A stretch of 64,000 nucleotides of DNA from a virus. The stretch is from positions 1 to 64,000 of the IMG/VR virus record IMGVR_UViG_3300022745_000001; one strand, given 5' to 3'. Of this stretch, positions 34,357 to 53,833 are shown piece by piece; the stretch's first letter is position 1; each line of letters opens with the position of its first letter. The notes below the pieces were generated by a model that saw only the letters and a list, made by a program, of their open reading frames with translations, did not search any database and was not told the DNA's origin. The position numbers and the translations under genes are program-made.

Positions 34357-35580
34357 ATGACAATGACTAGCAAACCTACTACCCCTGTTGTGGCATACGC
34401 ACCGTACGTCAAGCCCAAGTATGAATACTCGCACCTACCGCTGGTAACAGCGGGGGATGTGCCCAGCACCATGCTGATGCAGACACTGCACCGTGCGCTC
34501 AGCGTCAAGCGTGACCACGGTAGCATGAGCGAGGCGCGGTTCGTGGCGTGGCTGGTGAACCGCCTGCCCGTGACGATGATCGACGGCGCTGGCAACGTGC
34601 ACGTTGACTTGCGTGAAGGCCCACACCACCGCACGATGTTCACAAGCCATACCGATACTGTGCATCAGGGCGGTGGGGCCAATAACATCAGGCTCGATGC
34701 GAGTCAGCAGTCACGAATTGTTTGGCGTGCCGATGAGGGTGCCTGCCTTGGTGCAGATGATGGTGCCGGTGTTGCGCTCATGATGCACATGATCGACCGC
34801 AAGGTGCCGGGCTTGTATGTGTTCTTCCGTGGCGAGGAGTGTGGTGGCCTTGGCTCTAGCTGGATGGCCGATGACTTTCCCAAGTGCCTCAAAGACATTG
34901 ACCGCTGCGTGTCGTTCGACCGTGCTGGCTATAGCGATGTGATCACCCATCAGGGTGGTGCGCGTTGCTGCTCCGATGCGTTCGCACTTGCGCTGGCTGA
35001 TGCGTTGACCACGATGGACATGACGCTGGCCTTCTCGCCCAGCAATGCGGGTGTGTTCACCGACAGCGCCAATCTCGTGTACAAGGTAGCTGAGTGCACC
35101 AACGTCAGCGTGGGCTACAAGCATCAGCATGGCGATGGCGAGTGGCAAGATGTCAGCTTCCTGCAGCAGCTTGCTGACCAACTCTGCCTCGTTGACTGGG
35201 ATGCGCTGCCTGTCGAGCGTGACCCCAGCGTTGCACAGCCTAAGTACAAGTACACAACCGGCATCTATGATCCGCATGGTGCGTTCGCAGCCGACTACTG
35301 GCCTGAGCAGAAGGCAGACAAGGTAGCCAACACCGGCGACGAGTACAAAGACTTGCTGATCGAGGCGCTATGGGATGCCAGTGTGGGTATGTACTTCTCA
35401 CTCAAAGAGATCGTGTCCGCATGGATGTGCCCCGAGGAGCCGTCTACCTACCGCCATCTGATCGACGGCAAGCGTATGTCCGACATTATGTATGAGCAGT
35501 TCGCCGTTGGCCTGACCGATGGCACTGACACATACGAAGAAGTGTTGGACATCCTTACCGAAGACCTGACACGTAGCTAA
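34357..35580 (+). CDS. M28/M20-type zinc peptidase-like protein
   Basis: 407 aa. Motifs SHTDTVH, GADDGAGVA, RGEECGGLGS and VGYKHQHG, in the order expected for co-catalytic zinc peptidases. Confidence 0.55.
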   Translation: MTMTSKPTTPVVAYAPYVKPKYEYSHLPLVTAGDVPSTMLMQTLHRALSVKRDHGSMSEARFVAWLVNRLPVTMIDGAGNVHVDLREGPHHRTMFTSHTDTVHQGGGANNIRLDASQQSRIVWRADEGACLGADDGAGVALMMHMIDRKVPGLYVFFRGEECGGLGSSWMADDFPKCLKDIDRCVSFDRAGYSDVITHQGGARCCSDAFALALADALTTMDMTLAFSPSNAGVFTDSANLVYKVAECTNVSVGYKHQHGDGEWQDVSFLQQLADQLCLVDWDALPVERDPSVAQPKYKYTTGIYDPHGAFAADYWPEQKADKVANTGDEYKDLLIEALWDASVGMYFSLKEIVSAWMCPEEPSTYRHLIDGKRMSDIMYEQFAVGLTDGTDTYEEVLDILTEDLTRS

Positions 35581-35583
35581 TCT

Positions 35584-35602
35584 TAGGGACAAGCTGTCCC
35601 TA
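35584..35602 (+). promoter_or_regulatory. early hairpin palindrome, copy 5
   Basis: TAGGGACA-agc-TGTCCCTA, 4 nt after the stop. Confidence 0.65.
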
Positions 35603-35607
35603 CCGCC

Positions 35608-35624
35608 GCCAGTCGGCCACTGGC
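35608..35624 (+). promoter_or_regulatory. second hairpin of the bipartite cassette (copy 2)
   Basis: GCCAGT-cggcc-ACTGGC. Confidence 0.5.
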
Positions 35625-35641
35625 ATTCTTAGGAGATCGTT

Positions 35642-35848
35642 ATGAAATTGTTCAACCCGTTCAAAGCACCTAGCGCAACACATCTTGCGGTACAGGAATT
35701 AGAAGATGCCAAGCGTGAACTGCTTGCATCCCTGAGCGCACAGGAGTACGCCACGGCAATGGTTGCGTACAACACCGACCGAGTGCGCCGCCTGTCGGCC
35801 ACCGTGTCTTCCAGCAGTCATGATTTTTTGGAAGGAGAAGTGAAGTGA
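35642..35848 (+). CDS. hypothetical protein
   Basis: 68-aa ORF behind AGGAG. Confidence 0.6.
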   Translation: MKLFNPFKAPSATHLAVQELEDAKRELLASLSAQEYATAMVAYNTDRVRRLSATVSSSSHDFLEGEVK

Positions 35849-35928
35849 TGGACTGGATTGACTGCGTGGTCATCACGCTCGCTGGGCTGTACGCCCTTGT
35901 CTTAACCATGATGGAGCATTTCAAATGA
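35848..35928 (+). CDS. possible 26-aa hydrophobic peptide
   Basis: MDWIDCVVITLAGLYALVLTMMEHFK, linked to both neighbours by overlapping stop/start codons. Confidence 0.3.
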   Translation: MDWIDCVVITLAGLYALVLTMMEHFK

Positions 35929-36137
35929 CACTGGATGACTTTGACAACGCGGTTGCGTTCATTCTCGAACGCGCCGACGACAACGGCATTGAAGAGTGGT
36001 ATACGACAGACAGAAACATACTGAAAAGCATACTGAACGATATGCGCGAGTGCTATTACGGCGAGGAGGTGCAGCGCCGCACCGATTTTGCAGAGTACCA
36101 ACGGCTGAAAGCCATTTTTGAAGGAGAAGGCAAATGA
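35925..36137 (+). CDS. hypothetical protein
   Basis: 70-aa ORF. Confidence 0.6.
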   Translation: MTLDDFDNAVAFILERADDNGIEEWYTTDRNILKSILNDMRECYYGEEVQRRTDFAEYQRLKAIFEGEGK

Positions 36138-36325
36138 TCGAAGTAACTTTTACTGAACTCGCCCTGCTTGTCTGGGCGCTACTCGCAACGGCATACGCCC
36201 TGCGCTACCGGCACGAACGCTCGATGCTCAGCCGCATCCTGCAGCAGCTCACTGAAGACCCCACGCTGTACGCACAGTTGCGGGACGGCTGGGAATCTGT
36301 ACGAAAATCTTTTGTCAAGAGTTGA
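36134..36325 (+). CDS. small membrane protein
   Basis: 63-aa ORF with a TM segment LALLVWALLATAYAL. ATGA overlap. Confidence 0.6.
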   Translation: MIEVTFTELALLVWALLATAYALRYRHERSMLSRILQQLTEDPTLYAQLRDGWESVRKSFVKS

Positions 36326-36342
36326 ACTTTTACTGCTATAAT
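36312..36342 (+). promoter_or_regulatory. sigma70-like promoter (TTGTCA-N19-TATAAT) with the conserved downstream box TATAATCACAGCACAACA
   Basis: Same -10 and downstream box as at 53776-53818. Confidence 0.45.
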
Positions 36343-36374
36343 CACAGCACAACACATTTACCGGAGAAAATGAC

Positions 36375-36416
36375 ATGAGCAAAACCCTACTTTCTGCACG
36401 CCAAGTTAAGACCTAA
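36375..36416 (+). pseudogene. orphaned original 5' end of the AAA ATPase gene (13 codons then stop)
   Basis: ATG AGC AAA ACC CTA CTT TCT GCA CGC CAA GTT AAG ACC TAA = MSKTLLSARQVKT*, compared with MSKTLLSSRQVKQ at 36976. Preceded by the usual GGAG..TGACATG context. Confidence 0.7.
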
Positions 36417-36469
36417 AGGTGTTGACACCTTTGGCAAGACGTTGTACATTGAGGCTTTAAGGAACAGCT

Positions 36470-36979
36470 ATGGCACAACCTTGCGGAAAAGACAACACGG
36501 CCTACAAACATGGATTTGCGGTGCAGGGCAAGCGCCCTGCAATATATTGGCACTGGCGACACATGATCGCTAGGTGCCATGAGCCACGCTCCAAGGACTA
36601 CCACAAATACGGTGCGCGAGGGATTGTCGTGTGTGATCGTTGGCGCTACGGGGAGGACGGTGTTAGCGGCTTTGTCTTGTGGTTGCAAGACATGGGGCCG
36701 AAGCCGTATCCCGGAGCATCAGTAGACCGTAAAGACAACGACAAAGGGTACGCACCAGACAACTGTAGGTGGGCCTCGGTACACGAGCAGGCAAACAACC
36801 GCAGAACCAATGTGCTTGTAACAGCTTTCGGGCAAACAATGACCGTTGCACAATGGGCACGCACGCTAGGGATAGGGCCAAAGACTATCGGCTACAGGCT
36901 ACGGCAAGGCGCTTCGCCGGAAGAAGCACTTATGAAAAAACCGCATCGCGGAACTAAACTTAAATCGAGATCGACATGA
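36470..36979 (+). CDS. HNH-family homing endonuclease (paralog of 48399..48866)
   Basis: 169 aa. Pattern WRHMIARCHEP..KDYHKYGARGIVVCDRW...DRKDNDKGYAPDNCRWASVHEQANNRR, plus a C-terminal HTH-like TVAQWARTLGIGPKTIGYRLRQG. Confidence 0.7.
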   Translation: MAQPCGKDNTAYKHGFAVQGKRPAIYWHWRHMIARCHEPRSKDYHKYGARGIVVCDRWRYGEDGVSGFVLWLQDMGPKPYPGASVDRKDNDKGYAPDNCRWASVHEQANNRRTNVLVTAFGQTMTVAQWARTLGIGPKTIGYRLRQGASPEEALMKKPHRGTKLKSRST

Positions 36980-38103
36980 GCAAGACATTACTTTCATCCC
37001 GTCAAGTTAAGCAGCTTATCAAGGCTGTTGGTAACAAGCGAACTGTGCTGGTAGAAGGGGAGGCAGGCTGTGGCAAGACATCCATTCACTACGCGCTGAA
37101 GGCCGACCCTCAGTTCGCCAACTACTACGCGCCCAAGCCCATTGACTGCACGCAGTTGAGCGATGGCTCCATCGTGATGCCCGACATCGACCGCAGCCGT
37201 GGCGTGGCGCGTGAGCTGCCCAACGAGCGCTTGGGTGTGAGCGACGAGAACCACTTGGGCACCAAGGATGCGACCCCTGTGCTGATGTGCTTCGATGAGA
37301 TCGCCAAGTCTCGTCAGTTCATCAAGGACACCATCGCACCTATCGTGTACGAGCGGCGCATCGGCAACTACGTCATGCCCAATGGCAGCGTGGTGTTCGC
37401 CTGTACCAACCTGAGCGAAGAGGGTTTGGGCGACAGCCTTGCTGCACACCTGCGCAACCGCTTGGTCATCGTCGGTATGCGCAAGCCTACCAAGGACGAG
37501 TGGGTGCAGGACTTCGCCATCCCCAACGACCTCAACGAGAACGTCATAGCTGCGGCTGAGATGTACCCGATGGTGTTCAACTCGTTCATGGACTATCGCC
37601 CCGGCGGTCAGTTCGCAAGCAAGCAGTTGCGCAAGGACAACCCGTACATCAGCGACCCCGCTGACGCAGGACAGGAGCAGGTGGTCACACCTCGCTCGCT
37701 GCACGCAGCCAGTGATCTGGTCGATCAGATGGCGCACGTTGACAACCAGACGCTCCAAGCTGCGCTGGGCGGCACAGTGGGCGAGCCGTTCGCAGCCAAC
37801 ATCATGTCGATGATCCGCTTCGGTGAGAGCCTGCCTGCATTCGACCGCATACTTGCCGACCCCGAGGGTAGCCCGCTGCCATCCAACCCCACTGCGCAAG
37901 TGGTACAATGCTTTCAGTTCCTCACGCAAGTGAAGGACAAGGAGGCAGCGGAGCAGACCAGTATCTACGTGCAACGGATGCGTGAAGAGATGCAATCTCT
38001 GTTTGTCAACTGTGTTGTTAACAGCACCAAGATGGACAAGTTTGCATTGAGCAAGACGTTTGGTTCTGCCCTTGCCAAGAATCGACAGTACCTTGGTCAG
38101 TAA
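36976..38103 (+). CDS. AAA+ ATPase, MoxR/CobS-like
   Basis: 375 aa. Walker A GEAGCGKTS and Walker B LMCFDEIAK. Paired with a downstream VWA protein. Confidence 0.8.
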   Translation: MSKTLLSSRQVKQLIKAVGNKRTVLVEGEAGCGKTSIHYALKADPQFANYYAPKPIDCTQLSDGSIVMPDIDRSRGVARELPNERLGVSDENHLGTKDATPVLMCFDEIAKSRQFIKDTIAPIVYERRIGNYVMPNGSVVFACTNLSEEGLGDSLAAHLRNRLVIVGMRKPTKDEWVQDFAIPNDLNENVIAAAEMYPMVFNSFMDYRPGGQFASKQLRKDNPYISDPADAGQEQVVTPRSLHAASDLVDQMAHVDNQTLQAALGGTVGEPFAANIMSMIRFGESLPAFDRILADPEGSPLPSNPTAQVVQCFQFLTQVKDKEAAEQTSIYVQRMREEMQSLFVNCVVNSTKMDKFALSKTFGSALAKNRQYLGQ

Positions 38104-38112
38104 GGAGGCGTC

Positions 38113-38592
38113 ATGGCTGAGTTTATCTTTCGCCCAGAAGAGGGCTATATAGATCGCGTGTTCAAGAACGGCACGGTGCGCACGCGTGTAGGAACAGACA
38201 CCGGTAGCGGCCACCTTGTCGTAAACACACGCGGTGGGAAGAAACTTGTGCACCGTTTGTTGTGGGAAAGTGTACACGGGTCAATTCCTAAAGGGCTTGA
38301 GCTTGACCACATCAACGGAAACAGAAAGGACAACCGTATCAGCAACCTGCGCTTGGTCAGTCGCAAGCAGAATGCCGAGAACCGTAGCAAGCCCCATAAG
38401 GGCAACACCAGTGGGGTGAAGGGGGTATCTTGGTACAAACGCTACGCGAGGTACGTTGCACAGATTTGCGTAAATGGCGAACGGATTACGTTGGGGTACC
38501 GCAAAACTTTGGAGGAAGCGCAAGCGCTTTACGCCGAGGCTGCTGCGAAGTACCACACCCACAATCCGTCAGCAGATAGCGGGAGCATCTGA
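38113..38592 (+). CDS. free-standing HNH homing endonuclease with a C-terminal AP2-type DNA-binding domain
   Basis: 159 aa. LELDHINGNRKDNRISNLRLVSRKQNAEN (HNH), then GVSWYKRYARYVAQICVNGERITLGYRKTLEEAQALY (AP2-like). Confidence 0.8.
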   Translation: MAEFIFRPEEGYIDRVFKNGTVRTRVGTDTGSGHLVVNTRGGKKLVHRLLWESVHGSIPKGLELDHINGNRKDNRISNLRLVSRKQNAENRSKPHKGNTSGVKGVSWYKRYARYVAQICVNGERITLGYRKTLEEAQALYAEAAAKYHTHNPSADSGSI

Positions 38593-38594
38593 TC

Positions 38595-39029
38595 ATGCAA
38601 GTCATTACGTTTGGCGGGCGCAAGTACAAGCCCATGCTTACGAATGATGGCAAGCTCGACGTGCGTACCGCTGTGGCATACGGCCCCGCTGGCAGGGGCC
38701 AGTTCATGCTCACTGTGTACGTGCGTTGCCACTCGCAAGGCGCAGGCAGCCGAGGCGGAGAGATACAGTGCGTGGACATCAACGTGATGCGCGAGATGGT
38801 ACCCAACACGATCACTGAAGCTACCCAACTAGCGAAGCTGACCTTCATGTGCAATGTGATGGCAACCAAGTGCAACACGGACTACAGGCTGCGCCTGCCG
38901 ATAGCGACGCGACCGACACCGAAGTATTCACGACCAAAGAAGGAGGTGACCAAGCCTATGGGCATGTTCTTTGATGAGTACGAAGCACAACTTAGAAAGG
39001 AGATGGAGAATGGCATACAAAGACCTTAA
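38595..39029 (+). CDS. hypothetical protein
   Basis: 144-aa ORF between the HEG and the VWA gene. Confidence 0.6.
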   Translation: MQVITFGGRKYKPMLTNDGKLDVRTAVAYGPAGRGQFMLTVYVRCHSQGAGSRGGEIQCVDINVMREMVPNTITEATQLAKLTFMCNVMATKCNTDYRLRLPIATRPTPKYSRPKKEVTKPMGMFFDEYEAQLRKEMENGIQRP

Positions 39030-40206
39030 ACCGGAGCAGAAGATCGTGGCAGTGCACACGGACTTCATGCGCCACCCCGACTTCGCCATACTTGGCGGGG
39101 TCACACAGATCGGCAAGGTGCTGATCACTGACTTGGTGCCCACTGCAGGCACCGATGGCGAGGACGTGCTGTACAACGCCGAGTTCATCAAGGACATGAC
39201 GCGCAAGCAGTTGCGCTACCTTGTTGGGCACGAGGCTATGCACAAGGCGCTGCACCACTGCACTGAGTACATGCACCTGAAGAAGAAGCACCCGCAGGAG
39301 TTTGCTATGGCAATCGACTACGTGGTGAACTGGCAGCTTGAGAGCATGGACACAGCCAAGGAGAAATTCTTGGAGCGCCCGACCAACGTGCCCCCGCTCA
39401 TTGATGACAAGTACGCCAACATGAGCGTGCCTGAAGTCATGCGCAAGCTGTTGCAGAACCCACCGCCACCACAGCAACGCCCGCAACCGATGGACGAGCA
39501 CATGGACGGCAAGCCCATGTCCGTTGACTCTAGCGAAGCCGCCGATGGCAAAGACCTGAAGACGCGCATCGAGGATGCCGTGGCGCAGGGCGCTGTCGTG
39601 GCCGAGCAGTTGCAACAGATGCGGGGTACTGCCCCCGGTGACAACGCACTGTCGGGATTCCGTGAGCGCAAGACAGACTGGCGTGGCCCGCTGCGCAAGT
39701 TCATCGCTGAGATATGCGAGGGCGATGACCAGTCACGATTTGTGCCGCCCAACCGCAGGCTGTTGCCGCTGGACATCATCATGCCGAGCCGCTTCAGTGA
39801 GGCAACCGGTGAGTTGATCGTGGCGTGTGACACATCGGCATCCATGCACGGGCTGTACCCAATCGTGTTCGGTGAGATCGCCCGCATCGCACAGCAGATG
39901 CAGCCCGAGCGCGTGCGCGTGCTGTGGTGGGATACGCGTGTGGCAGGTGATCAGGTGTTCGCCCCCAAGGACTACGCCAACATCGCCAAGCTCATGCACC
40001 CACGAGGCGGAGGGGGAACCACTGTGTCGTGCGTGGCGGGCTACATCCGCGACAAGCGGTACAAGCCCAAGGCGACGATATACCTGAGTGACGGGTACGT
40101 GGAAGCGAAGTATGAAGTTGCACCGGGGAATGTCTTATGGGGCATCTGCGGCAACACCAACTTCCGCCCCATCCGGGGCAAGCTGCTGCGCATTGAGGAG
40201 GTGTGA
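39010..40206 (+). CDS. VWA-domain protein with an N-terminal metallopeptidase-like HExxH region (DUF2201/CobT-like)
   Basis: Start set at MAYKDLK (ATG 39010) behind AAAGGAG; the track start 38971 is a TTG. Contains HEAMHKALHH and the MIDAS motif VACDTSASM. Confidence 0.7.
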   Translation: MAYKDLKPEQKIVAVHTDFMRHPDFAILGGVTQIGKVLITDLVPTAGTDGEDVLYNAEFIKDMTRKQLRYLVGHEAMHKALHHCTEYMHLKKKHPQEFAMAIDYVVNWQLESMDTAKEKFLERPTNVPPLIDDKYANMSVPEVMRKLLQNPPPPQQRPQPMDEHMDGKPMSVDSSEAADGKDLKTRIEDAVAQGAVVAEQLQQMRGTAPGDNALSGFRERKTDWRGPLRKFIAEICEGDDQSRFVPPNRRLLPLDIIMPSRFSEATGELIVACDTSASMHGLYPIVFGEIARIAQQMQPERVRVLWWDTRVAGDQVFAPKDYANIAKLMHPRGGGGTTVSCVAGYIRDKRYKPKATIYLSDGYVEAKYEVAPGNVLWGICGNTNFRPIRGKLLRIEEV

Positions 40207-40621: not shown

Positions 40622-41184
40622 TGGCGATAACGAAAGAGCAGTTATTGGACAAGTTTGAACGCATGTGCAAGCAGGCGCATGACGAAGCAAGTATGGTAGG
40701 AGACTTCCAACGTGCGAAAGAGATCAGACGGTATTACGAAGAAAGGAAATATGACATGGACAACGACATGATGAACAGTATCTTGGGACAGACACTGACA
40801 ACGGGCATTGGTATGGGGCAGCTTGGTGTCAGCAACGGGCTGGTCAATGCGTCCAGCACCAGTAGTATCTACCAGAACGCGTTGTTGCAACAAAACCAAT
40901 TCACGCAGGCAGCTACGCAGGCGTCAGGACTGATGGACTTCTTGCCGGAGTTCGGCGTGCTGTACCTGAACAACAAGGAGCTGCCTGCGGATTGGGCGGG
41001 CGCAAAGGTAACCGAGTTCAAACGCTTAGTTGCACGCGAGAACTGGCATGTGCAGTTCCTTAGCAAGTGGGACAAGGCGTTGGTGATCAACCTGTATCTT
41101 GACATCGAAGAGTACAACGGAAAGGAGGTAAACGAGATGGCCGCTACCTACATGGAAGCGCTCAATCAACGGAGGATGGGGTAG
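40618..41184 (+). CDS. hypothetical protein
   Basis: 188-aa ORF with an ATGA overlap. C-terminus ...EVNEMAATYMEALNQRR parallels ...EVEQAAQVYMMTLNMRR of the previous gene. Confidence 0.6.
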   Translation: MMAITKEQLLDKFERMCKQAHDEASMVGDFQRAKEIRRYYEERKYDMDNDMMNSILGQTLTTGIGMGQLGVSNGLVNASSTSSIYQNALLQQNQFTQAATQASGLMDFLPEFGVLYLNNKELPADWAGAKVTEFKRLVARENWHVQFLSKWDKALVINLYLDIEEYNGKEVNEMAATYMEALNQRRMG

Positions 41185-41238
41185 CTTGCTTAACCGACTG
41201 ATAGATAAATTTTTTCGTAGTAACTAAGGAGAGATGAC

Positions 41239-44034: not shown

Positions 44035-44246
44035 AACACTTACACACCAAGACATTGAAGGATGGTCGCCAGCACATCTTGATTGAACTCCAACCCGGAG
44101 AGGGCACTGGGATTCTTCACGTAGCGCCGCACAGCTTTTACAAGCTGGGCTACCCGCTGGATGACCAAATCATTGAGAGCCACCACCTTGCAGAAGTCAA
44201 GCGCGTGGCATGGGACGCTTACTCGCAAGAATGGGTGGACGTATGA
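44031..44246 (+). CDS. hypothetical protein
   Basis: 71-aa ORF with an ATGA overlap. Confidence 0.6.
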   Translation: MKHLHTKTLKDGRQHILIELQPGEGTGILHVAPHSFYKLGYPLDDQIIESHHLAEVKRVAWDAYSQEWVDV

Positions 44247-44596
44247 CAGACCTTGAAATCAGCAAAGCTCTTGCACTGGCGATTGGGTATCTGCCTGAGC
44301 ATGTACGCGAGTACGGTGTTGGCAGCAGCAACTACAACAGGGGCGAAGGCATCATCCAAGTCTTCCGTCACGACGGCGTGTATGGCGTTAATCGCACCGA
44401 GTGCAATTTCCTATGGAACGACTTTCGGTACACCACATGGAACGTCATCGGCCCGATAGCTGAACGCTTTGATGCGTTCCCTAAGAAACTGGCAAGCATG
44501 GAGGGTTGGTGGGCAGACGTGTTCGGTAAGGATGCACGGTTCGCAGACACCCCGCAGAAAGCCATCGCGCTTGCGGTGATTGGAGCGAAGCAATGA
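44243..44596 (+). CDS. DUF2591/NinX-like protein (tentative)
   Basis: Start at MTDLEISKALALAIGY (ATGA overlap), inside track ORF 44210..44596. Confidence 0.4.
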   Translation: MTDLEISKALALAIGYLPEHVREYGVGSSNYNRGEGIIQVFRHDGVYGVNRTECNFLWNDFRYTTWNVIGPIAERFDAFPKKLASMEGWWADVFGKDARFADTPQKAIALAVIGAKQ

Positions 44597-47887: not shown

Positions 47888-48105
47888 GCGAAGCGGAGCA
47901 GCACACGGTGCTGGCTATCGCCAGTGCAGCGGTGCGCACCATCAGCAGCGAGCGCGGCGCGATGATAGTCGTGTACGACGAAGAGGGCGATGGACAGGCC
48001 ATGCTGATGTCCTGTGGCAACCAGTTCATCGTCGGCCCGATGCTGGCAACAGCGCAGGCTATTGGTCGCCGCTTCTACGCAGACACGCCCGAGGTTGTGC
48101 AGTGA
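47851..48105 (+). CDS. hypothetical protein
   Basis: Start at MEDEFK behind AAGGAAATGAC; the track start 47818 is a GTG. Confidence 0.5.
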   Translation: MEDEFKTQLLALSEAEQHTVLAIASAAVRTISSERGAMIVVYDEEGDGQAMLMSCGNQFIVGPMLATAQAIGRRFYADTPEVVQ

Positions 48106-48353
48106 AAGTTACGTGGTACATCAGTGCCGACGCATGGCTGCAAGGCATCCTGTGCGGTCAGTTTCGCGTCGAGGAACGCGACAACTTCAGCGTGGTGCGT
48201 GATGCCCTACATGGCTACAACGCGCTGCGCGTGGACTGGGATGAAACAGACCCGCCACTTGTAAAAGACCGCATTGAGATAATGAACAACATGCTACTCG
48301 CAGTAGAGGTGCGCTACAACGACATGAAGGACAAACATGGCACAACCGTATAA
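48102..48353 (+). CDS. hypothetical protein
   Basis: 83-aa ORF. Its end overlaps the orphaned polymerase start. Confidence 0.6.
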   Translation: MKVTWYISADAWLQGILCGQFRVEERDNFSVVRDALHGYNALRVDWDETDPPLVKDRIEIMNNMLLAVEVRYNDMKDKHGTTV

Positions 48354-48375
48354 GACAATCCTGTGTTATCATTGA
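48337..48375 (+). pseudogene. orphaned original 5' end of the DNA polymerase gene (12 codons then stop)
   Basis: ATG GCA CAA CCG TAT AAG ACA ATC CTG TGT TAT CAT TGA = MAQPYKTILCYH*, compared with MSQPYKTILCIDYE at 48863. Six of the shared codons differ only at the wobble base. Confidence 0.7.
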
Positions 48376-48398
48376 TTTTCCAATATGTTGGGAATAAT

Positions 48399-48866
48399 AT
48401 GAAATCACATGGAGAAATAAAAAGAGTTGACGGGAAACGCGTGGCCTCACCGGAGTACCGTTCTTGGCAAATGATGAAAAACAGGTGTCTAAACCCAAAA
48501 GCCAGAGACTATCCGTACTATGGCGGGCGCGGAATCAAACTATGCAAACGTTGGTTGCAGTTTGAAAACTTTTTGGAGGATATGGGGCGCAGGCCAGACG
48601 CCATGTATACCCTCGAACGTCGGAACGGAGACAAGGACTACACCCCTAAGAACTGTTGCTGGGCGACACGCGAAACACAAGCGCGTAACCGAGAATATGC
48701 GGCTACGAAGGAGTGGGAACTGGCTGACAAGTTGCAAGTGTCAAGAGCTACCACGCGACACTATCTTTGGGTTTTGCGAAAGCTAGTACGCGGCACGCCG
48801 ACACGCTATAAATTGTCGGAAACAACAATCAACATCATCAAAACGCACATGGGAGATCGTTTATGA
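48399..48866 (+). CDS. HNH-family homing endonuclease (paralog of 36470..36979)
   Basis: Start at MKSHGEIK, inside track ORF 48363..48866. Pattern YRSWQMMKNRCLNPKARDYPYYGGRGIKLCKRW...ERRNGDKDYTPKNCCWATRETQARNRE. Confidence 0.7.
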   Translation: MKSHGEIKRVDGKRVASPEYRSWQMMKNRCLNPKARDYPYYGGRGIKLCKRWLQFENFLEDMGRRPDAMYTLERRNGDKDYTPKNCCWATRETQARNREYAATKEWELADKLQVSRATTRHYLWVLRKLVRGTPTRYKLSETTINIIKTHMGDRL

Positions 48867-50881
48867 GCCAACCCTACAAGACCATACTTTGCATAGACTA
48901 CGAGACGGCGTGGTCTTCCAAGGAAGACAGCCCGTTAGGTAAATATACTTTGGCGTCCATGACAACCGAGGAGTACATTCGTGACGAACGCTTCCACGCC
49001 CACGGTGCCTGCATCCACGAAGTCGGAGCAGATACGAAAATCCAATGGTATTCACACAGTGAGCTACCAAAGATTCTTGCCATGTACGACTGGACTAAGA
49101 CTGCGGTGGTGGGGCACAACGCCATGTTCGACGTGGGCATCCTGTCCCTGCGTTACGGCGTCAACCCATGCTTCATCTTCGACACGCTATCAATGGCCCG
49201 CGCTATGCGTGGAAGTGAAGCCGGTAACAGCTTAGCGAAACTGGCCGAAGCCTATGGCTACCCGCCCAAGGGTCGCGCTGTGTACAGCACCGATGGGCTG
49301 CGCGAGCTTGATGCGCAGACTGAAAAAGAACTGGCCGAATACTGCAAGCATGACGTGTACTTGTGCGAACAGATTTTCGGCAAGCTGCTGATGCGTGTGT
49401 TCCCCGACGGCAGCACCGCCGGGTCATACCCCACCAAGGAGCTGCGCCTGATCGACATGACCCTGCGTATGTTCACCGAGCCGGAGTTCGAGCTGGATCG
49501 GGAGCTGTTGGAGAAGGCGCTGGTGGAGGAGAACGACAAGCTGGCCGCTGCGCTGACGAAGGTGAGCGTGGAGCCTACCCAACTGGCAAGCAACGATATG
49601 TTTGCTGATGTACTGCGCAGCCTCGGCATCGAGCCGCCGCAGAAGGTGAGCAAGACAACCGGCAAGCTGACCTATGCGTTTGCCAAGACAGATGCGCTGT
49701 TCCAAGCACTGCTCAACGGCGACAACGAAGACGCCGCCCTGATGTGCGAAGCCCGCCTGAAGGTGAAGTCCACACTGGAGCGCACACGCGCACAGCGGTT
49801 CATCGACATCTCCAAGCGCGGTTGCCTGCCGGTGCCACTGCACTACTACGGCGCGGGTACTGGACGGTACGCTGCCACCGGCAACATCAACATGCAGAAC
49901 ATGAAGCGCGGCTCGTTCCTGCGCAAGTCGATCATGGCACCGGATGGTTATGTGATCTGCGCTGGTGACTTGTCACAGATTGAGCCGCGTGTGCTGGCGT
50001 GGCTGTCGGACTACGATGAGATGCTTGACATCTTCCGTGCCGGTGGCGATCCCTATGCTACGTTTGGCGCAACGATGTTCAGCATCCCCGGCTTGACCAA
50101 AGAGAGCCACCCGCTGCTGCGTCAGAGCGCGAAGTCTGCGTTGTTGGGCGCTGGGTATCAGCTTGGCTGGGCCTCGTTCGCTGGGCAGCTCCTGACAGGC
50201 TTCCTCGGTGCGCCGCCGCAACGCTATACCAAGGCCGATGCCAAGCAGTTGGGTGTGACCGGCAATCAGGTCAGCGCCTTCATCAGCAACGGCGAGAACC
50301 TGAAGAAGATGGAGAAGATCGCCCACACCTGCACCGATGAGGAGCTGCTGATCCACTGCCTTGCAGCCAAGGCGATCATCGACAAGTACCGCGCAGCGGC
50401 ACACCCGGTAGCAGGCTATTGGGAGTTGCTGGGCAACCTCATCGTGCACAGCTTGATCGAAGGCAACGAGTACAACCACAAGGGAGTGCTCACGTTTCGC
50501 AAGGGCGAGATCGAGATGGTCAACGGTATGCGGATGTATTACCGCGACATCAAGGAAGAGAAGGATGAGAAGGGCCGTGCGCAGTATTCATTCAGCACCG
50601 GCAAGCTGCGCAAGAAGCTGTACGCTGGCTTGCTGGCAAACAACACCACGCAAGGACTGGCCCGCATCGTGATGACGGACGGCCTGTTGCGCGTGCAGAA
50701 GCGCTTCCCTGTGAAGGGGACAGTGCATGACGAAGGACTCGTGCTGGTGCCAGAGGCTGGCGCAGCGGAGGGGAGCGCTTGGATCAAGGAGCAAATGATT
50801 CAGGTGCCCAAGTGGATGCCCGGCATCCCGCTCAATGCGGACGTTGGGTACAACAAACGGTATGGACTTGCGAAGTCGTAG
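48863..50881 (+). CDS. family A DNA polymerase with a 3'-5' exonuclease domain
   Basis: 672 aa. Exo motifs CIDYETAW, HNAMFDVGIL and YCKHDVYL. Pol motifs DLSQIEPRVLA (A), RQSAKSALLGAGYQ (B) and VHDEGLV (C). Confidence 0.9.
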   Translation: MSQPYKTILCIDYETAWSSKEDSPLGKYTLASMTTEEYIRDERFHAHGACIHEVGADTKIQWYSHSELPKILAMYDWTKTAVVGHNAMFDVGILSLRYGVNPCFIFDTLSMARAMRGSEAGNSLAKLAEAYGYPPKGRAVYSTDGLRELDAQTEKELAEYCKHDVYLCEQIFGKLLMRVFPDGSTAGSYPTKELRLIDMTLRMFTEPEFELDRELLEKALVEENDKLAAALTKVSVEPTQLASNDMFADVLRSLGIEPPQKVSKTTGKLTYAFAKTDALFQALLNGDNEDAALMCEARLKVKSTLERTRAQRFIDISKRGCLPVPLHYYGAGTGRYAATGNINMQNMKRGSFLRKSIMAPDGYVICAGDLSQIEPRVLAWLSDYDEMLDIFRAGGDPYATFGATMFSIPGLTKESHPLLRQSAKSALLGAGYQLGWASFAGQLLTGFLGAPPQRYTKADAKQLGVTGNQVSAFISNGENLKKMEKIAHTCTDEELLIHCLAAKAIIDKYRAAAHPVAGYWELLGNLIVHSLIEGNEYNHKGVLTFRKGEIEMVNGMRMYYRDIKEEKDEKGRAQYSFSTGKLRKKLYAGLLANNTTQGLARIVMTDGLLRVQKRFPVKGTVHDEGLVLVPEAGAAEGSAWIKEQMIQVPKWMPGIPLNADVGYNKRYGLAKS

Positions 50882-53775: not shown

Positions 53776-53805
53776 TTGTAAAGAACTGGACAAAGTGTGT
53801 ATAAT
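53776..53805 (+). promoter_or_regulatory. sigma70-like promoter (TTGTAA-N18-TATAAT) with the conserved box TATAATCACACCACAACA
   Basis: Lies in the 67-bp gap after the helicase gene. Matches the element at 36312-36355. Confidence 0.5.
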
Positions 53806-53833
53806 CACACCACAACAAAAATTGGAGTGACAT

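Follow-up and report, generated by a model that had tools for sequence, protein, structure and literature searches.

A putative homing-endonuclease cassette at the start of a phage ATPase gene, with a diverged replacement gene end and a resident stub

Introduction

In a 64,000-nucleotide (nt) stretch of viral DNA, positions 1 to 64,000 of IMG/VR virus record IMGVR_UViG_3300022745_000001 (the window throughout), an open reading frame (ORF) annotated as an HNH endonuclease lies between two copies of the first codons of an ATPase gene, of which the upstream copy ends after a few codons and the downstream one opens a complete gene. The question raised by this locus is how an endonuclease-like gene came to occupy the start of the ATPase gene, and from which source each of the two starts was derived. 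A first-pass annotation, made from the sequence of the window, had proposed that the ORF was inserted into the ATPase gene and carried a recoded replacement start for it.

Comparison with a sister phage shows the ORF to be an insertion, the upstream copy to be the start of the resident gene and the 5' end of the functional ATPase gene to be foreign; the same anatomy recurs at a second gene of the window and in other phages. The locus is best explained as a free-standing homing-endonuclease cassette acquired by double-strand-break repair, with the right crossover inside the ATPase gene and the left junction in its first codons, and the probability of this reading is put at about 0.8.

Structure of the ATPase locus and comparison with the empty site

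The functional ATPase gene of the window (36976-38103, plus strand; 375 amino acids, aa) was matched to phrog_1297 (ATPase) and has more than 1000 homologues, with conservation of the Walker A region GEAGxGKT. Upstream of it, on the plus strand, the conserved motif TATAATCACAGCACAACA (36337-36354) and the Shine-Dalgarno sequence GGAG (36363-36366) precede a mini-ORF, MSKTLLSARQVKT followed by a stop (36375-36416; ATG at 36375, TAA at 36414-36416). The first 12 codons of the mini-ORF (36375-36410, plus strand) are referred to as the stub, and its codon 13 and stop are supplied by the inserted DNA. The leader of the inserted cassette (36411-36469, plus strand), which holds a promoter-like element, TTGACA-N17-TACATT (36422-36450, plus strand), and an inverted repeat, is followed by the endonuclease-like ORF (36470-36979, plus strand; 169 aa), with an N-terminal nuclease-like domain and a C-terminal helix-turn-helix. 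The ATG of this ORF lies 53 nt from the mini-ORF stop, and its TGA overlaps the ATPase ATG at 36976 (ATGA). When the window sequence and its ORFs were re-read, every feature reported in the first-pass annotation, including the mini-ORF, the promoter-like element, the endonuclease ORF and the ATGA overlap, was found in place, and so were the wobble-type differences between the duplicated codons. The two 12-codon copies agree at 11 of 12 residues and at 29 of 36 nt, and six of the seven nt differences are at third codon positions or at the synonymous first position of Leu codons.

For the definition of the empty site, contig IMGVR_UViG_3300022744_000004 from the viral collection (labelled L001, L171 and L261), which is 92-97% identical to the window over the aligned flanks, was used as the sister phage. 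Among cultured phages, a megablast search of the region against 50,697 phage records gave no match, and a tblastn search gave only N4-like ATPases, about 22% identical and none of them usable as an empty site. In L001, the same upstream gene is followed by TATAATCACAGCACAACA, GGAG and TGACATG in this order and then by the intact ATPase gene, with neither the endonuclease ORF nor the mini-ORF. The ATG of the L001 ATPase gene occupies the position of the stub ATG in the window, and the upstream signals are identical in the two phages, standing directly 5' of the intact ATPase gene in L001 and before the stub in the window; they are thus the native signals of the ATPase gene. The stub is identical to the L001 ATPase start at 36 of 36 nt (L001 4085-4120), the approximately 120 nt to the left of the junction show zero differences from L001, and collinearity breaks after ATPase codon 12, where the window continues after GTTAAG as ACCTAAAGG. 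The 36/36 match together with the undiverged left flank identifies the stub as the resident gene's own start, cut after codon 12 and severed from the gene body, and L001 defines the empty site into which the ORF was inserted, as the first-pass annotation had supposed. The stub is probably still translated, because the native expression signals are retained.

The 5' end of the functional ATPase gene came with the inserted DNA. By base-by-base alignment with L001, nt 1-95 of the gene (36976-37070, plus strand; codons 1-32) contained 24 differences (25%), in contrast to 11 differences in 765 nt (1.4%) at nt 96-860. Of the 23 codons altered within nt 1-95, 19 are synonymous, and the protein differs at four residues (A8S, S17A, H20N and A32C), as expected of a functional homologue from a diverged donor. 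The insert therefore supplies a replacement start of its target gene, as had been claimed. The recoding, which had been confined to the 13 duplicated codons and regarded as a special feature, runs instead to nt 95 and reads as ordinary, mostly synonymous divergence imported from a diverged donor gene, i.e. as a co-conversion tract. A similar tract is present at the ATPase 3' end (37839-38102, plus strand), where about 50 differences from L001 (about 20%) were counted at nt 864-1127. Beside it stands an unrelated second endonuclease gene with HNH_3 and AP2 domains (38113-38592, plus strand; Pfam HNH_3, E = 7.6e-21), which is absent from L001 and is inserted between the last ATPase sense codon and TGATCATG of L001. 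Two foreign blocks, each beside an endonuclease gene missing in L001, match co-conversion tracts (PMC2988022). A patchy diverged block relative to L001 was also seen at 38693-38992.

The same arrangement was present on three contigs, which argues against an assembly artefact. By a scan of the whole window for N-terminal 12-mers recurring no more than 1.6 kb upstream, only the ATPase case and a case at a DNA polymerase gene were found; together with the 36/36 match to L001, this shows that the duplicate is no chance resemblance.

Within 35500-38800 the TTGACA-N17-TACATT element is the sole sigma-70-like match, with 1.7 expected by chance. A perfect 7-bp inverted repeat, AAAGGTG-TTGA-CACCTTT (36415-36432), overlaps the -35-like hexamer of the cassette and is not kept in the leaders of orthologous cassettes. 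The motif upstream of the stub, in the form TATAATCAC[AC][GC]CACAACA, occurs twice in the window (36337-36354 and 53800-53817; chance expectation 0.26 at up to 3 mismatches), and a near-copy, TATAATCAACCCACAACA, stands before the stub of another phage, L003 (at about 68-85), whose ATPase is only 69% identical. This motif may be a phage-specific promoter.

The DNA polymerase gene of the same window

A second case had been indicated at the polymerase gene; it is real and has the same anatomy (48337-48866). The polymerase stub, MAQPYKTILCYH followed by a stop (48337-48375, plus strand), is identical in its first 30 nt to the polymerase start of the sister phage (L261), in which the polymerase gene is intact and holds no insert. 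The stub is followed by a paralogous endonuclease-like ORF (48399-48866, plus strand), absent from L261, of which the product is 42% identical to that of the ATPase-side ORF over the N-terminal domain and differs from it at the C-terminus. Its stop overlaps the ATG at 48863 (ATGA) of the DNA polymerase gene (48863-50881, plus strand), which starts MSQPYKTILCID. The donor-derived tract at the polymerase 5' end (48863-49080, plus strand) shows 65 differences from L261, including 18 nt of insertions and deletions (indels), over nt 1 to about 218, and the next approximately 700 nt show zero. The first 17 nt of the polymerase stub are at the same time the 3' end of the upstream ORF 48102-48353, and this overlap would force retention of the stub.

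Orthologous cassettes in related phages

Homologues of the endonuclease with 60-78% identity were traced to contigs, and in every close lineage the endonuclease gene was found directly 5' of an ATPase orthologue, usually overlapping it and otherwise a few nt apart. Stubs are carried by five lineages, counting the window. In the window the stub comprises 12 codons (nt 36) and the junction lies upstream of the -35 element of the cassette. In L003-5 the stub, MAKFLSHRQVSALIKAV, extends to nt 52 and is followed by DTHGKTG and a stop, with the junction inside the -35 element (GTAG/ACACCC); L260, whose contig end shows 16 nt or more of the stub, has the junction of L003. In L256/L257 the stub comprises 22 codons (to about nt 66), followed by YNKGS and a stop that lies, in L256, 13 nt before the endonuclease ATG, and the junction is at the TATAAT of the cassette. 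In L354 the stub likewise comprises 22 codons, with the junction at TATAAT one codon earlier, and its tail reads through (IMKVG...). Leader elements of two hexamers at similar spacing are present in L003 (TAGACA-N17-TAGACT), L006 (TTGACA-N17-TATAAT) and L008 (TTGCAC-N16-TACACT), and the complete element of L006 stands before an endonuclease gene that has no stub.

No recognisable stub was found in six endonuclease-bearing lineages (L006, L007, L008, L251, L252-5 and L355/6). The arrangement in the window had been described as different from the usual intergenic, intron or intein arrangements, and the difference from introns and inteins stands; the six orthologous lineages, however, occupy the ordinary free-standing position, so the stubbed arrangement is a variant outcome of free-standing endonuclease transfer and not a separate class. 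Three properties of a free-standing homing endonuclease gene were found: the ORF is present or absent among close relatives at a fixed site, it is flanked by a co-conversion tract (replicated at the polymerase gene and in L003), and it lies outside any intron or intein, with its own start and stop and no Rfam match.

L258, an endonuclease-less relative of L003, encodes the ATPase P0022. The L003 stub is identical to the L258 ATPase start at 51 of 52 nt, and the two phages differ by 12%. Between the functional ATPase of L003 and P0022, 29 differences were counted, 12 of them in the first 39 residues (31%) and 17 in the remaining 336 (5%). At L003 804-827 (ATPase codons 31-38), which is donor-derived, GEAGSSKT replaces the GEAGxGKT of all other homologues examined, and this Gly-to-Ser change in Walker A could be a target-site escape change.

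In the viral collection, the endonuclease gene was found in 0 of about 79-80 ATPase loci. With a profile of the ATPase N-terminus, no stub was detected upstream of any endonuclease-less relative (about 79 loci), and the best score among them, 2.3 bits in a reverse-strand control frame, compares with 27 bits for L003-5; the mini-ORF without the endonuclease, which the first-pass annotation had named as the finding that would speak against insertion, thus did not occur in these loci. A search of the viral collection for the exact L003/L260 junction gave 12 chance matches and no cassette. In three distant lineages (L012, L014 and L091) the endonuclease is likewise paired with an ATPase, itself a distant one; among the matches listed from a scan of metagenomes with the endonuclease alignment, only distant members with at most 51% identity were present, L091 being added in this way. 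So far, the arrangement is confined to this phage group and the two target genes; it is not family-wide.

A flank difference between L256 and L257 was considered as a sign of cassette mobility and was dropped, the two being the same phage with a 378-nt indel. The indel (L256 2012-2388) holds a 126-aa ORF directly upstream of the ribosome-binding site of the stub, and the contigs are otherwise 98-100% identical.

Identity of the endonuclease-like product

The 169-aa product was matched to phrog_3377 ("HNH endonuclease") with E = 1.8e-49, and strongly also to the HNH-annotated phrog_374, phrog_2081, phrog_953 and phrog_4578. By tblastn the family was found in 1094 phage records, often labelled HNH endonuclease, and in a library of predicted viral structures the matches were exclusively phage proteins that are unnamed or labelled HNH. 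An AlphaFold model of the product (predicted local distance difference test score, pLDDT, 85) has strands at residues 84-87 and 99-102 and a helix at 104-109; Asn98, Asn109 and Asn110 are invariant in the family alignment, and an HTH_8-like C-terminus is present in 21 of 31 homologues. The shared N-terminal domain and the differing C-termini of the two paralogues in the window are consistent with a modular build of the enzyme, in which DNA-binding parts could be exchanged. Nuclease activity is suggested by the family annotation and by the genetic footprint at the two loci.

The HNH label given in the first-pass annotation agrees with these profiles, but it is opposed by the following. No HNH model of Pfam or NCBIfam matched the product or any of its 31 homologues, and an invariant Arg87 (31/31) occupies the end of strand 1, where the first His of an HNH motif would be expected; in a pairwise alignment that was not significant, VDR of the product stands opposite LDH of the HNH_3 protein. 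A Foldseek search gave no significant match to a solved structure, the best being PacI (3ldy) with E = 0.14 and a template-modelling (TM) score of 0.25-0.29, and a sequence-profile search of the PDB with the product gave nothing relevant. The HNH assignment is therefore weaker than the database label implies, and the nuclease assignment is drawn from the PHROG profiles only.

Proposed transfer of the cassette

Three parts would make up the mobile unit: the leader, which has a promoter-like element of its own; the endonuclease ORF; and the first approximately 95 nt of the donor's ATPase gene. This unit may have entered an L001-like phage during mixed infection with a diverged relative. The enzyme would cut endonuclease-less ATPase genes near the 5' end, and the break would be repaired from the endonuclease-bearing genome, with copying of all DNA between the endonuclease gene and the cut; obligatory copying up to the cut would explain the donor tract at the 5' end. 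The right crossover would be homologous and fall between nt 95 and 129 of the ATPase gene, so that the functional gene is a chimera with a foreign 5' end and the body of the resident gene. At the left, the join would lie in the first codons of the resident gene (nt 36); it may be the product of illegitimate one-sided repair or of a homologous crossover in a stub that the donor already had. The native promoter-like motif, the ribosome-binding site and 12 codons would be left as a stub terminating in the cassette.

If the stubs, the longest of which hold 66 nt of resident sequence, mark the left end of the break, the cut is predicted in the interval from about nt 66 to nt 129, which encodes TVLVEGEAGxGKT (Walker A). 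The donor tract would be resistant to cutting, and self-immunity by sequence change is plausible by analogy with intronless homing (PMC2988022).

Besides the doubts about the HNH assignment, several results speak against the proposed transfer. The donor of the 95-nt tract of the window was not found. In an alignment of ATPase 5' ends from endonuclease-bearing and endonuclease-less phages, no position separated the two groups. In L003 the tract is patchy, the foreign sequence at nt 4-39 and 91-117 of the functional copy being separated by a resident-like stretch at nt 40-90; as a result of this patchiness and of the lack of a position separating the alleles, the predicted cut interval is soft. 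Among distant family members, for which 160 loci were screened, a stub of the downstream gene was found in 0 of 63 testable loci, with 0 reverse-strand control matches.

The stub as a possible homology arm or scar

Within the proposed transfer, two explanations of the left junction were weighed. According to the first, which is put forward tentatively as somewhat short of an even chance, the stub is part of the mobile unit and the cassette is flanked on both sides by sequence from a conserved target gene, with the truncated stub at its left and the new 5' end at its right. The same junction is found in L003 and L260, and a second one is common to L256 and L354 (with a one-codon offset), although the cassettes of the two pairs are only 74% and 72% identical in DNA, respectively; the stubs of both pairs keep open ATPase-like frames. 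By hand count, third codon positions account for 4 of 4 stub differences between L003 and L260 and for 8 of 11 between L256 and L354, a total of 12 of 15 as compared with 1/3 expected (chance estimated at about 3e-4), with the reservation that 15 differences only are available. This third-position bias indicates that the stubs derive from functional genes and not from one decaying ancestor. In both L003 and the window, the stub is much closer to resident-type genes (51/52 and 36/36, respectively) than to the downstream copy on the same genome. The four observations (shared junctions, open frames, third-position bias and resemblance to resident-type genes) favour a homologous left crossover within a donor stub, for at least some of the transfers. 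That the arrangement arose at two genes of one genome is a further point in favour of a stub that belongs to the mobile unit. In addition, the window sequence ACCTAAAGGTGTTG, between the stub and the -35 element, is like the end of the L260 stub, ATTAAAGCGGTAG, at 7 of 10 positions and may be a decayed remnant of a donor stub; a similar element is also present before the stub-less cassettes of L007 and L008.

According to the second explanation, which is possible though rather doubtful, the stub is a pure scar, each one having arisen independently by non-homologous or microhomology joining of a resected end to the leader, with no role in later transfers. The junctions do vary, both in the gene, where they are at nt 36, 52 and about 66, and in the cassette, where they precede the -35 element, interrupt it or coincide with the -10 element. 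Junctions of this kind are known products of one-sided homing (PMC2988022), and six lineages have no stub. A pure scar is, however, difficult to reconcile with two junction classes common to cassettes that are 72-74% identical, with open-framed stubs differing mostly at third positions, and with an L003 stub that matches a resident-type gene at 51 of 52 nt even though the phages are 12% apart; the shared junctions and the identity of the L003 stub are better explained if crossover with resident genes renews the stub than if the stub is a scar in decay.

If the stub does serve as a homology arm, a stubbed cassette could home into any phage with the target gene, whatever lies upstream, and without an intron or intein. 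A homing endonuclease could then reside within a gene independently of splicing, and the cassette would be the phage 5'-end counterpart of the mitochondrial C-terminus elements described below.

Other explanations of the locus

Selection of the synonymous changes for destruction of the recognition site in the phage's own genome was considered as an alternative to imported divergence and is held to be unlikely. Endonuclease-bearing genomes must escape self-cleavage, resistant target polymorphisms have been described for intronless homing (PMC2988022), and the tract spans the region of the predicted cut. Against these points, the divergence is even over 95 nt (and over 218 nt at the polymerase gene), like the ordinary synonymous divergence of homologues, a similar tract is present at the far end of the gene beside an unrelated endonuclease gene, and no position distinguishes endonuclease-bearing from endonuclease-less alleles.

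A regulatory role of the mini-ORF, as a functional upstream ORF or as a leader peptide acting on expression of the endonuclease or the ATPase, is highly improbable. It does retain the native promoter-like motif and ribosome-binding site, and the stub stop of L256 is close to the endonuclease ATG (13 nt), but none of the endonuclease-less relatives has a mini-ORF, six endonuclease-bearing lineages lack it as well, the length and the tail vary each time (T and DTHGKTG and YNKGS, each before a stop, and the read-through IMKVG... of L354), and in the window the two are 53 nt apart. The stub is most likely without a function of its own.

A self-splicing intron, an intein, an assembly artefact or a local tandem duplication, for which only the position of the ORF inside a gene could be adduced, can practically be set aside, as no Rfam match at E up to 1 was obtained in 35800-39200, the ORF has its own start and stop out of frame with the ATPase gene, the ATPase gene starts at an ATG of its own and is complete, the arrangement was present on three contigs, and a local duplication cannot give a 25%-diverged 5' end on a 1.4%-diverged gene.

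Relation to known systems

The preferred reading, a free-standing homing endonuclease acquired by break repair, has its nearest counterpart in fungal mitochondria, in which mobile endonuclease ORFs carry a foreign C-terminus of the host gene, replace the resident one and leave it downstream as a remnant, as in atp6 of Allomyces macrogynus, atp6, atp9, cox2 and nad3 of Glomus sp., atp9 of Rhizopus and cox2 of Mortierella (PMC3630166 and, for Allomyces, a report of 1994 cited there). In Allomyces the remnant is identical to the sister species and the inserted copy has diverged, largely synonymously (PMC3630166). Common to these ORFs and to the phage case are an endonuclease that travels with a foreign gene end and a resident end left as a remnant that is identical or near-identical to the sister taxon. 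In contrast, the mitochondrial elements occupy the 3' end, belong to the GIY-YIG or LAGLIDADG families and are often fused in frame, whereas the phage cassette occupies the 5' end, belongs to an HNH-annotated family and forms an ORF of its own, with a stop that overlaps the new start codon; furthermore, the phage stub keeps native expression signals, unlike the mitochondrial remnant, which is unexpressed.

Free-standing endonucleases spread with co-conversion of flanking DNA (PMC2988022). The locus resembles the intronless homing of T-even phages (SegB, SegF, SegG and MobE; PMC2988022, PMC2790892) in the stand-alone gene beside its target, the sporadic distribution, the co-converted flanks and the diverged version of the target in the endonuclease-bearing genome. 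It differs in that the T-even cases have homology on both flanks and no stub has been described for them, whereas here the left junction lies in the target gene and a truncated duplicate remains. In T4, one-sided homology leads to illegitimate junctions at microhomologies after nucleolytic degradation (PMC2988022); homology on one side, with the other junction at microhomology after resection, would likewise be shared with the present locus, and has been proposed as a route to new sites. The T4 one-sided homing was, however, experimental and performed with an intron, whereas the products described here are natural, occur in several lineages and may be part of the mobile unit.

An HNH-type gene inside the span of an essential phage gene is also known from genes in pieces, such as nrdA/mobE of Aeh1, and from the N4-like Pseudomonas phages ZC03 and ZC08. 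In the latter, an HNH gene inside an ATPase-domain gene was reported as a split gene, which the authors suggest to be a ribonucleotide reductase, and no duplicated end is mentioned (PMC5418858). In genes in pieces both fragments are needed, whereas here the downstream gene is complete and the 12-codon stub is redundant. In full-text literature searches, the coverage of which was incomplete, no phage report of such an arrangement was found; as far as these searches show, the arrangement is known at gene ends in fungal mitochondria and its phage 5'-end version has not been reported.

Comparison with the sister phage separates resident from imported sequence and places both junctions to the base, and the locus is thus a record of a transfer event. 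It could represent a third way for phage homing endonucleases to occupy an essential gene, in which a replacement gene end is imported and no splicing is needed. A practical point for annotation and phylogeny is that the first approximately 30-70 codons of such genes differ in history from the rest. Translation of the ATPase gene may become coupled to the selfish ORF (ATGA overlap, weak Shine-Dalgarno sequence), which could make loss of the element costly.

Additional observations

The partner gene of the ATPase (DUF2201/VWA) is located at 38971-40206. Between the sister phage and the window, two further segments differ. L001 2958-3559, with two small ORFs (98 and 106 aa), is missing at window position 35845 or thereabouts, and pieces of it match window 44230-44596. 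A segment of about 570 nt with one small ORF, L001 7804-8376, is missing at window 41184-41221. None of these extra small ORFs of L001 is endonuclease-like.

In two of the distant lineages, short ORFs with their own ribosome-binding sites stand just 5' of the endonuclease homologues (L014, about 2930-2990; L012, about 2950-2975). The short ORF of L014, MDTTHFAARPGG..., is faintly like the start of the downstream ATPase, MANTHISFG..., and the two ORFs may be very decayed stubs or due to chance. In the Hamiltonella phage APSE-1 (L341; NC_000935.1, 29132-29554), the family member P46, 40% identical, is annotated as lying wholly inside the DNA polymerase ORF P45.

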